Shown: piece by piece, positions 9,498 to 10,145 of the stretch
How positions within the stretch are numbered: the stretch's first letter is position 1
Layout of the letters: each line of letters starts with the position of its first letter
NCBI RefSeq assembly: GCF_053078305.1
Contig: NZ_CP166879.1
DNA: 64,000 bases
Reading direction: 5' to 3' (one strand)
The notes under the pieces: generated by a model
Databases searched by the model: none
What the model saw: the letters and a program-made list of their open reading frames with translations, nothing else
What the model was told of the DNA's origin: nothing
Made by a program: the position numbers and the translations under genes

Positions 9498-10145
9498 TCA
9501 GCCGGCGCGCAGACCGGCTTCGGTGAAGGTGTATTTGTTGATGAGAAGGGTCTCATCAACAGCGGCATCTGAGGTCAGCCAGTCATACTCGTTTTCCAGT
9601 TGACGGTACAACCAGAAGGCCAGGTCGCGCAGGGCTTCGCTGACTGCGGCTTCCGCATCGGTTGTCATTACCTGACCAGTCGGACTGTTCCGGGTGACGG
9701 TGATATCCATGCTGTACGGATGGCAGTAGCGTCCCCGGAGATTGATTTCAGCCTGAAGCTGCCAGAAGTTACGTTTCTGCACCACCTGCAGGGCATCCGC
9801 GATACGATGAAGCTCACGGTCCTGCGGGGCATATTCCCGGAGCCTCCTGGCTGTTGCTGACTGCCAGTGCCAGCGTCCTTCAAAACAGGCTCCGTCCCCC
9901 TGGCTGCAGAATCCGCTGAACCAGATGCACGGCTCTTCCATAAACCTGCCACTGCTGAGCCGGAAAACGCGCTGGCGGAGGTCAATTCCGAAAATGCCAC
10001 AGACCGCCCTGAAGTCCTCGTACACGTTTTCATACCAGTTGCTGTCAGAATGGTGCACACGGTACCAGTCGCGGGCTTTTTCCCGTGCAGAAGGGCAGGA
10101 AAGTTCATCCAGCGTATACACTGTGGTGGTGATAATGCTGCTCAT
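9498..10145 (-). CDS. Hypothetical Cys-containing protein inserted between the DUF987 gene and cbeA
   Basis: 215-aa ORF, tightly spaced within the operon; contains GFCSQGDGACFEG; not recognised. Confidence 0.45.
   Translation of the reverse strand: MSSIITTTVYTLDELSCPSAREKARDWYRVHHSDSNWYENVYEDFRAVCGIFGIDLRQRVFRLSSGRFMEEPCIWFSGFCSQGDGACFEGRWHWQSATARRLREYAPQDRELHRIADALQVVQKRNFWQLQAEINLRGRYCHPYSMDITVTRNSPTGQVMTTDAEAAVSEALRDLAFWLYRQLENEYDWLTSDAAVDETLLINKYTFTEAGLRAG

Follow-up and report, generated by a model that had tools for sequence, protein, structure and literature searches.

We analysed 64,000 nucleotides (nt) of contig NZ_CP166879.1 (NCBI RefSeq assembly GCF_053078305.1; this whole stretch is called the window below) and followed an intact open reading frame (ORF) of 215 amino acids (aa), located on the minus strand at 9498..10145 between a DUF987 gene and the antitoxin gene cbeA. 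Its product belongs, with near certainty, to the Pfam family DUF8835. The gene is an ancestral but dispensable member of the operon DUF932-antirestriction-RadC-DUF987-gene-CbeA-CbtA, carried on E. coli integrative islands. The CP4-44 array of K-12, from which it is missing, is almost certainly a derived form that arose by a deletion of ~640 base pairs, the longer arrangement of the window being the ancestral one. From the gene context we infer that the protein is an element establishment or counter-defence factor, a reading to which we give a probability of roughly 40-50%; the timing of its expression, its counter-defence activity and its mode of action are proposed on that same basis.

The DUF8835 gene and the K-12 deletion

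The ORF starts with ATG, is uninterrupted and occurs once in the window. It matches, at 100% DNA identity, an annotated coding sequence of E. coli STEC17-190, whose product WP_000094921.1 is labelled 'hypothetical protein'; it is the same gene in the same position, and nothing is different. The family assignment comes from an orthologue with 92% DNA identity, WP_000086755.1, which is named 'DUF8835 domain-containing protein' in a newer RefSeq record. That gene is syntenic, standing between DUF987 and a YeeU-family antitoxin.

An earlier note on this DNA, made from the letters alone, had recognised no motif in the product, and in this it agrees with our scans: Pfam-A (even at E up to 10, in a copy that evidently lacks the DUF8835 model), NCBIfam and PADLOC gave no match. 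The CbeA_antitoxin profile (PF06154) did not match the protein at E up to 10, as opposed to E 9.7e-54 for the neighbouring true CbeA. Neither did any RelB/Phd/YefM antitoxin profile of Pfam, NCBIfam or PADLOC, nor Antirestrict (PF03230), ArdcN (PF08401) or another antirestriction profile of Pfam-A. The homology search by profile and structure that the note had called for did return a relative among phage families: PHROG 5162 aligns over its full length (E 3.7e-34, 119 bits; residues 3-211 on positions 3-195 of 201), making the protein a member of that family. No relative was found in the PDB.

A third name has been given to copies of the family by the RefSeq/NCBI pipeline, namely that of an antitoxin. 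In two papers that we checked, this label stands for the product of a relB gene and for a Yersinia ruckeri protein that is not related, and we found no experimental basis for applying it to DUF8835. A family so labelled in the data of Samuel et al. 2024 could not be linked to the protein studied here. The literature searched does not mention DUF8835, nor does a genomic-island preprint mention these genes.

Homologues are nearly all stand-alone proteins of ~200-225 aa that align end to end. The ratio of non-synonymous to synonymous substitution rates (dN/dS) was calculated with orthologues; it is 0.23-0.36 among E. coli sequences and 0.11-0.20 in comparisons with Klebsiella, Salmonella and Cereibacter. 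Given these ratios and the full-length stand-alone homologues, the ORF is a real coding gene under purifying selection and not a chance reading frame. The note had left room for a frameshifted fragment of a neighbouring gene; this is ruled out, as stand-alone homologues are ubiquitous and the product resembles neither DUF987 nor CbeA.

A search of 1.84 billion representative proteins, clustered at 50% identity, found 3269 clusters of the family at E ≤1e-3 and 341 at E ≤1e-30. The E. coli protein is 60-61% identical to its counterparts in Tistrella and Cereibacter and 58-61% identical to those in Klebsiella and Salmonella. Such equal identity to Alphaproteobacteria and to enterobacteria suggests that the family evolves slowly and has spread horizontally.

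We compared the ORF by megablast with 5426 complete E. coli genomes. The gene is present in 1967 of them, at 2832 places and with up to 8 per genome; coverage of the ORF reaches at least 80% in 1942 genomes. The DUF987 gene occurs at 12910 places and cbeA at 13188; ~22% of DUF987 arrays hold the gene and ~78% lack it. Found in a third of E. coli genomes and already catalogued, it is ordinary as a sequence feature. The earlier note had considered that it might prove a common array member with a known annotation: common and catalogued it is, but as a family of unknown function.

The same note described an additional, tightly spaced ORF inserted into a canonical array. The ORF is indeed there, 18 nt downstream of the DUF987 stop and 49 nt upstream of the cbeA GTG start, and it is extra relative to K-12, where the gap between the DUF987 gene and the antitoxin gene measures 73 nt in CP4-44 (yeeT-cbeA) and 18 nt in CP4-6. 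The direction of the change, however, is the reverse. The CP4-44 spacer (NC_000913.3, L009 6040-6112) aligns with the end of DUF987, with the 18-nt spacer, ribosome-binding site included, and with the first 22 nt of the ORF (ATGAGCAGAATTATCGCCACTAC, encoding MSRIIATT). The alignment resumes past the ORF stop codon, in the intergenic stretch just 5' of cbeA; in the window, the matching parts are 10124-10163 and ~9449-9470. Had the gene been gained by insertion, K-12 would not have its start codon and N-terminal codons; the event was thus a deletion. Of the 5426 genomes, 3114 contain the scar junction in full length.

The CP4-44 spacer also contains a relic mini-ORF, ATGAGCAGAATTATCGCCACTACCGGACCATTCTTAGCCGATTTTCTGTAA, whose first 7 codons are those of the DUF8835 gene start. 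The two other K-12 arrays, CP4-6 and CP4-57, have spacers of 18 and 37 nt, a shorter type of antitoxin and no clear relic of the gene. In CP4-6 (L010 4985-5050, compared with 10140-10185 of the window), yafW starts 18 nt after the DUF987 stop, which is the position of the DUF8835 start in the window; in CP4-57 (L011 6055-6140), the 37-nt spacer precedes yfjZ. The products of yafW and yfjZ begin with ATGAGCAAC, that of the window ORF with ATGAGCAGC. This likeness may be due to chance, or may go back to an earlier deletion by which the DUF8835 start became joined to a truncated antitoxin.

In a derivative of E. coli B (NZ_CP117044.1, L003 6001-6644) the DUF8835 gene is frameshifted and annotated as a pseudogene. 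With the deletion in K-12 and the frameshift in B, neither of the classic laboratory lineages has a working copy at these loci.

Conserved residues, predicted fold and genomic contexts

We aligned 107 diverse homologues and used the same alignment as input for AlphaFold2. L15 and G53 are invariant; E14, A20, A24, G78, Q82, G83, D84, G85, A86, F88, D109, L112, I115, L119, H142, W178, Y180, L183, N203, F207 and G211 are conserved in at least 90% of the sequences. The family signature, G-F-x-S-Q-G-D-G-A-[CS]-F-E-G, spans residues 78-90. It coincides with the Cys/Gly-rich segment that the earlier note had singled out, which is therefore significant for its loop and not for its cysteines. The column of C80 contains S, W, C or Y, that of C87 contains C in 62% and S in 31% of cases, and the other four cysteines are variable; a metal-cluster or disulfide motif was rejected on this ground.

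The AlphaFold2 model has a mean predicted local distance difference test (pLDDT) score of 96.7 and a predicted template modelling (pTM) score of 0.89. The predicted fold consists of an N-terminal helical hairpin, a six-strand meander, two helices, a β hairpin and a long C-terminal helix pair, with the signature loop placed on the meander, between two β strands. The conserved polar residues E14, Q82, D84, E89, D109, H113, Q123, Y140, H142 and N203 would ring the S-Q-G-D-G-A part of this loop. Together they could serve in the binding of a host protein or make up a small site for catalysis or for a ligand.

Foldseek found no solved structural relative in the PDB (E of at least 0.06, TM of at most 0.22), and sequence searches of the PDB, with the single sequence or with the 107-sequence profile, gave chance matches only, at E of at least 0.3. 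In BFVD, Foldseek matched uncharacterised phage proteins only, in agreement with the phage homologues described below. The isoelectric point (pI) is 4.7-5.5, with 30-37 Asp and Glu against 17-28 Lys and Arg. The protein is soluble, mildly acidic and of the α/β type.

In Enterobacteriaceae, the gene occurs in the same island operon and adjoins CbeA in every locus examined, on either side of it. The order is DUF987 - gene - CbeA - CbtA in E. coli and DUF987 - CbeA - gene - CbtA in Klebsiella michiganensis. Salmonella diarizonae has the Klebsiella order, and there the CbeA stop and the start of the gene overlap by 4 nt.

This company is not general. We surveyed one genome per species, which gave at least 507 confirmed loci; the neighbourhood figures that follow describe the best 80, almost all from Alphaproteobacteria, in which same-strand ORFs were clustered and representatives scanned against Pfam. 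CbeA, CbtA or DUF987 accompanies the gene in 1 of the 80 (Salmonella) and RadC in 16. The clustered neighbours conserved in Alphaproteobacteria include no toxin family.

In alphaproteobacterial integrative and conjugative elements (ICEs) and plasmids, the gene is part of a module that begins with ArdC (ArdcN + MPTase-PolyVal), a DUF2958 protein, a 712-aa ParB_N protein and a DUF6915 protein. Next come 185-aa and 138-aa proteins of unknown kind, the DUF8835 gene itself, a 1458-aa protein, a DUF7146-Toprim protein and a YAcAr SLOG protein. The 1458-aa protein is present in 53 loci, with AAA_34 detected in one representative (L013) and AAA_34 plus Helicase_C_4 in another (L008); its sequence reads like that of a methylase-helicase.

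The 138-aa protein is encoded directly upstream in 73 of the 80 mostly alphaproteobacterial loci (L019-L098; also L008 9526-10005), and in 65 of 69 its stop and the DUF8835 start overlap by 8 nt, so that translation of the two uncharacterised proteins may be coupled. The 138-aa protein is acidic, begins with MADYFTHFSCLLDVG and has no Pfam family. A motif noticed by eye, 'TC..D..G..G', had made it a candidate CbeA relative; we rejected this, as hhalign gave a probability of 0.4% (E 0.14), and the method relates it to neither CbeA, DUF987 nor CbtA. Since it is absent from the enterobacterial and phage loci, it is a lineage-specific partner.

The Tistrella copy is oriented toward a NikA-like/relaxase pair that is ~2 kb away. 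The origin of transfer (oriT) is usually upstream of the relaxase operon; if this holds here, the orientation would fit that of a leading-region gene. Homologues occur on 112 plasmids, mostly alphaproteobacterial, of which 41 are predicted to be conjugative. On another island the gene is found between an N6 methylase, directly upstream, and a PD-(D/E)XK/UvrD pair.

Phages carry the gene as well. By tblastn we found a homologue in 51 phage genomes; these members of PHROG 5162 are 25-40% identical to the E. coli protein and are found in terminal repeats or surrounded by small ORFs of early type, and not beside toxin-antitoxin genes, with neither CbeA nor CbtA in their neighbourhoods. In the giant Caulobacter phages CcrPW (NC_048046.1, L100 5001-5651), CcrSC, CcrBL9, C1 and RB23, the homologue belongs to the ~18-kb terminal repeats, where dozens of small genes without annotation surround it, so that each genome has two copies. 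Other carriers are the Acinetobacter Saclayvirus, Pseudomonas phages Lana and PMBT3, E. coli phage Av-05 and Salmonella jumbo phages; in addition, one metagenomic contig with a homologue resembles a phage early region, full of 50-60-aa ORFs.

One phage copy, in Acinetobacter phage vB_AbaM_CP14 (OP585105.1, L099 3992-4591), is labelled 'RNA polymerase binding protein'. We disregarded this label because those of its neighbours are implausible: ORFs of 45-75 aa are called DNA polymerase (a 60-aa one), clamp loader and so on. In this record, labels seem to have been carried over according to gene position, and they are unreliable.

DUF8835 is thus a stand-alone, conserved accessory protein of mobile elements, whose immediate neighbours vary by lineage: in E. 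coli the gene directly upstream is DUF987, whereas Klebsiella and Salmonella have CbeA in that place and one plasmid-like contig has DUF6915. On a larger scale, its surroundings are consistently those of element 'entry', made of antirestriction, ParB-like and methylase-helicase genes, or of early or terminal-repeat phage DNA.

A proposed role in element establishment and the competing explanations

We propose that the protein acts alone, as an establishment or counter-defence factor. Its expression would coincide with that of the antirestriction genes, upon entry of the element into a cell or its induction there, and as an early product it would help establishment, most plausibly by neutralising a host defence or another host factor. 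The context favours such a role over one in a toxin-antitoxin system, which is disfavoured because CbeA or CbtA is found at just 1 of the 80 species-level loci.

According to Samuel et al. 2024 (PMC11541004), the transferred strand of plasmid leading regions brings together genes for anti-defence, methylase, single-stranded DNA-binding and toxin-antitoxin proteins, a mix that matches the content of the E. coli operon. With the Antirestrict operon, the ArdC module and the Tistrella relaxase, the gene has neighbourhoods like those of the leading- or early-region genes for ArdA, ArdB/KlcA, ArdC and Ocr (PMC11541004). Like many leading-region anti-defence genes, it is small, acidic in its product, dispensable and patchily distributed. 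It has, however, no homology to ArdA, ArdB/KlcA, ArdC or Ocr, and its product is only moderately acidic.

Several points weigh against this proposal. We found neither homology (in Pfam-A, NCBIfam and PADLOC) nor an experiment that ties the family to any activity. Guilt by association is a weak argument; modules of leading regions also hold replication, partition and DNA-processing genes, and the gene itself is placed in a leading region by its proximity to a relaxase rather than by a mapped oriT. A pI of 4.7-5.5 falls short of the extreme acidity of DNA-mimic antirestriction proteins. The adjacency to CbeA throughout Enterobacteriaceae, the 4-nt overlap in Salmonella and the existence of CbeA fusions keep a toxin-antitoxin-linked role alive. 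Finally, the gene is missing from the majority of E. coli arrays, so that whatever advantage it brings must be conditional.

A bolder form of the same idea, which we regard as doubtful, is that DUF8835 represents a new counter-defence or host-takeover family with a fold that lacks a solved relative, common to ICEs, conjugative plasmids, islands and large lytic phages of Proteobacteria. Its members would act through the invariant S-Q-G-D-G-A loop with the conserved Asp and His residues, either by binding a widespread component of host immunity or by destroying a small signalling or nucleotide substrate.

A housekeeping function for the element itself, in DNA processing, replication priming or partition together with the ParB-like, primase-like (Toprim) or methylase-helicase neighbours, seems unlikely to us. 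In its favour, the gene has, in alphaproteobacterial ICEs and plasmids, a conserved slot between the ParB_N protein and the AAA_34 (SNF2-like) and DUF7146-Toprim proteins, and residues E14, Q82, D84, D109, H113, H142 and N203 look more like an active site than like the surface of a mimic. But E. coli islands have no ParB, Toprim or helicase partner adjoining the gene, phage contexts lack them likewise, and lytic phages with quite different replication machinery carry homologues all the same. Moreover, the gene is often deleted while the island is retained, and our fold searches of the PDB detected no nucleic-acid-binding or nuclease fold.

Somewhat less likely again is that the protein serves as a third component of the CbtA/CbeA type IV module, as a regulator, chaperone or second antitoxin that is co-translated with CbeA and tunes CbtA toxicity. 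Apart from the antitoxin name supplied by the NCBI annotation pipeline, this is suggested by gene order: the gene touches CbeA at all enterobacterial loci examined, is interposed between CbeA and CbtA in Klebsiella michiganensis and overlaps CbeA, stop to start, by 4 nt in Salmonella diarizonae. There are also natural in-frame fusions of 343 aa between the DUF8835 protein and CbeA in some E. coli, including one complete genome (CP138416.1; fusion loci L102 and L103 3001-4032, proteins P0003-P0014, P0018, P0021, P0024 and P0025).

Other observations speak against this reading. The fusions arose when a single stop codon changed from TGA to TTA and 34 nt of the intergenic spacer were deleted, in closely related sequences (94-99% identical); AlphaFold2 gave the 343-aa fusion a pTM of 0.58, with low pLDDT at the junction and in the CbeA part and no confident interface, which is a weak negative. 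The antitoxin name is generic, being used in the two papers checked for the relB product and the unrelated Yersinia ruckeri protein. CbeA and CbtA are missing from 79 of the 80 species-level loci and from the phage neighbourhoods, while ~78% of E. coli DUF987 arrays have no DUF8835 gene. The K-12 arrays, in which the CbtA/CbeA, YkfI/YafW and YpjF/YfjZ pairs were characterised (PMC5624674 and PMC5371832), do not have it either.

With CbeA and RelB-type antitoxins, then, the protein shares the CbeA/CbtA adjacency in Enterobacteriaceae and a database name. It differs from them in having no similarity in sequence, including to the RelB/Phd families, in being twice their size with a different predicted fold, and in mostly lacking a toxin neighbour. 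It is not an antitoxin of the CbeA or RelB type, and the CbtA/CbeA pair does not need it.

An improbable variant of counter-defence is a DNA mimic like ArdA or Ocr, directed against type I restriction enzymes. The operon shared with the Antirestrict gene in E. coli, the module shared with ArdC in Alphaproteobacteria, the N6 methylase directly upstream on one island and the net negative charge (pI 4.7-5.5) would all suit such a protein. Its acidity is moderate, however (30-37 Asp+Glu for 17-28 Lys+Arg), it resembles neither Antirestrict, ArdcN nor any other Pfam family, its predicted compact α/β domain matches no solved structure, and what is conserved is a glycine-rich loop with His, Asp and Gln rather than an array of charges.

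Most improbable of all is a decaying remnant without function in present-day E. coli: frequent loss with a K-12-type scar in 3114 genomes, the frameshift in E. coli B and the truncated and chimeric forms in the protein database would agree with it, but dN/dS is 0.23-0.36 among E. coli copies and 0.11-0.20 across genera, 1942 genomes keep at least 80% of the length, and the window ORF is intact with its ribosome-binding site.

The surrounding operon and the reference array

The genes of the operon are read in the order DUF932, Antirestrict, RadC/JAB, DUF987, ORF, CbeA, CbtA, DUF5983, DUF957 and DUF4942; their coordinates are collected in Table 1. The Shine-Dalgarno-like AAGGGG stands 6 nt 5' of the ATG of the ORF. 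The antirestriction gene has an annotated start slightly further downstream in STEC17-190 than in the ORF of the window (10946-11452).

Table 1 Features of the island around the DUF8835 gene, in window coordinates
Feature	Position	Strand	Evidence or remark
Truncated LysR gene adjoining the integrase	4809-5216		STEC17-190 annotation, paoD beyond
Tyrosine recombinase/integrase, island edge	5518..6873	+	ORF call; integrase in STEC17-190 annotation
DUF4942 gene	6966..7814	-	PF13708, E 5.3e-70
DUF957 gene	7911..8108	-	Coordinates transferred from STEC17-190 annotation
DUF5983 gene (yeeW-like)	8128..8616	-	PF25638 + PF19419
CbtA-family toxin gene	8613..8990	-	PF06755, E 1.8e-55
cbeA, YeeU-family type IV antitoxin, GTG start, immediately downstream of ORF	9080..9448	-	PF06154, E 9.7e-54; STEC17-190 annotation
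215-aa ORF, DUF8835 / PHROG 5162 family	9498..10145	-	Identical to WP_000094921.1
Codons 78-90 of ORF, signature loop GFCSQGDGACFEG	9876..9914	-	Conserved in 107-homologue alignment
Spacer from DUF987 stop to ORF start, 18 nt, Shine-Dalgarno-like AAGGGG	10146..10163	-	Read from sequence
DUF987 gene (yeeT homologue), immediately upstream of ORF	10164..10385	-	PF06174, E 9.7e-40; same annotation in STEC17-190
RadC-like JAB domain gene	10454..10945	-	PF04002, E 5.5e-45
Antirestriction protein gene (Pfam Antirestrict)	10946..11452	-	PF03230, E 1.8e-37
DUF932 gene, first of tightly packed run	11517..12335	-	PF06067, E 8.7e-51

Terminator-like hairpins on the minus strand bracket the run, at 12413-12384 and 7871-7845, with a further one at 12722-12694; that at 7871-7845 follows the DUF957 gene, and the other two precede DUF932 at a short distance. 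Inside it, a terminator scan found two weaker sites only, both within coding sequence. Because of the tight packing, the flanking hairpins and the scarcity of internal terminators, the genes are likely to be co-transcribed.

Three GC-rich hairpins of the minus strand (12722-12684, 12413-12374 and 7871-7835) carry near-identical tails, TTTTTATTTAT, TTTTCATTTAT and TTTTCATTTAT, respectively. They stand before the DUF905 and DUF932 genes and before DUF4942, and look like a repeated terminator or regulatory element that punctuates the island. An Rfam scan of the window found no family overlapping the ORF or its region; elsewhere it located an IS102 RNA and one tRNA, at 19055-19258 (-) and 51249-51321 (-).

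In CP4-57 (L011 4920-5869), the antirestriction and RadC homologues formerly called yfjX and yfjY are now named lfgA and lfgB, and lfgB is annotated as 'CP4-57 prophage protease'. Hence one or more genes of this type of operon have recently been assigned an activity.

For comparisons of CbtA/CbeA islands, the longer form should be taken as the reference, as the yeeT-cbeA order of K-12, often regarded as canonical, is a deletion derivative. DUF8835 is a large family with ~60% identity across proteobacterial classes, no solved relative and a place near antirestriction genes, be it in ICEs, on plasmids or in phage terminal repeats, which makes it a reasonable candidate for anti-defence screens. 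Natural carrier and non-carrier E. coli, the 3114 genomes with the scar among them, would make anti-defence tests straightforward. If the family does prove to act in counter-defence or host takeover, the DUF932-to-CbtA operon of E. coli could be seen as a fossil 'entry operon', preserved in K-12 only in trimmed form.

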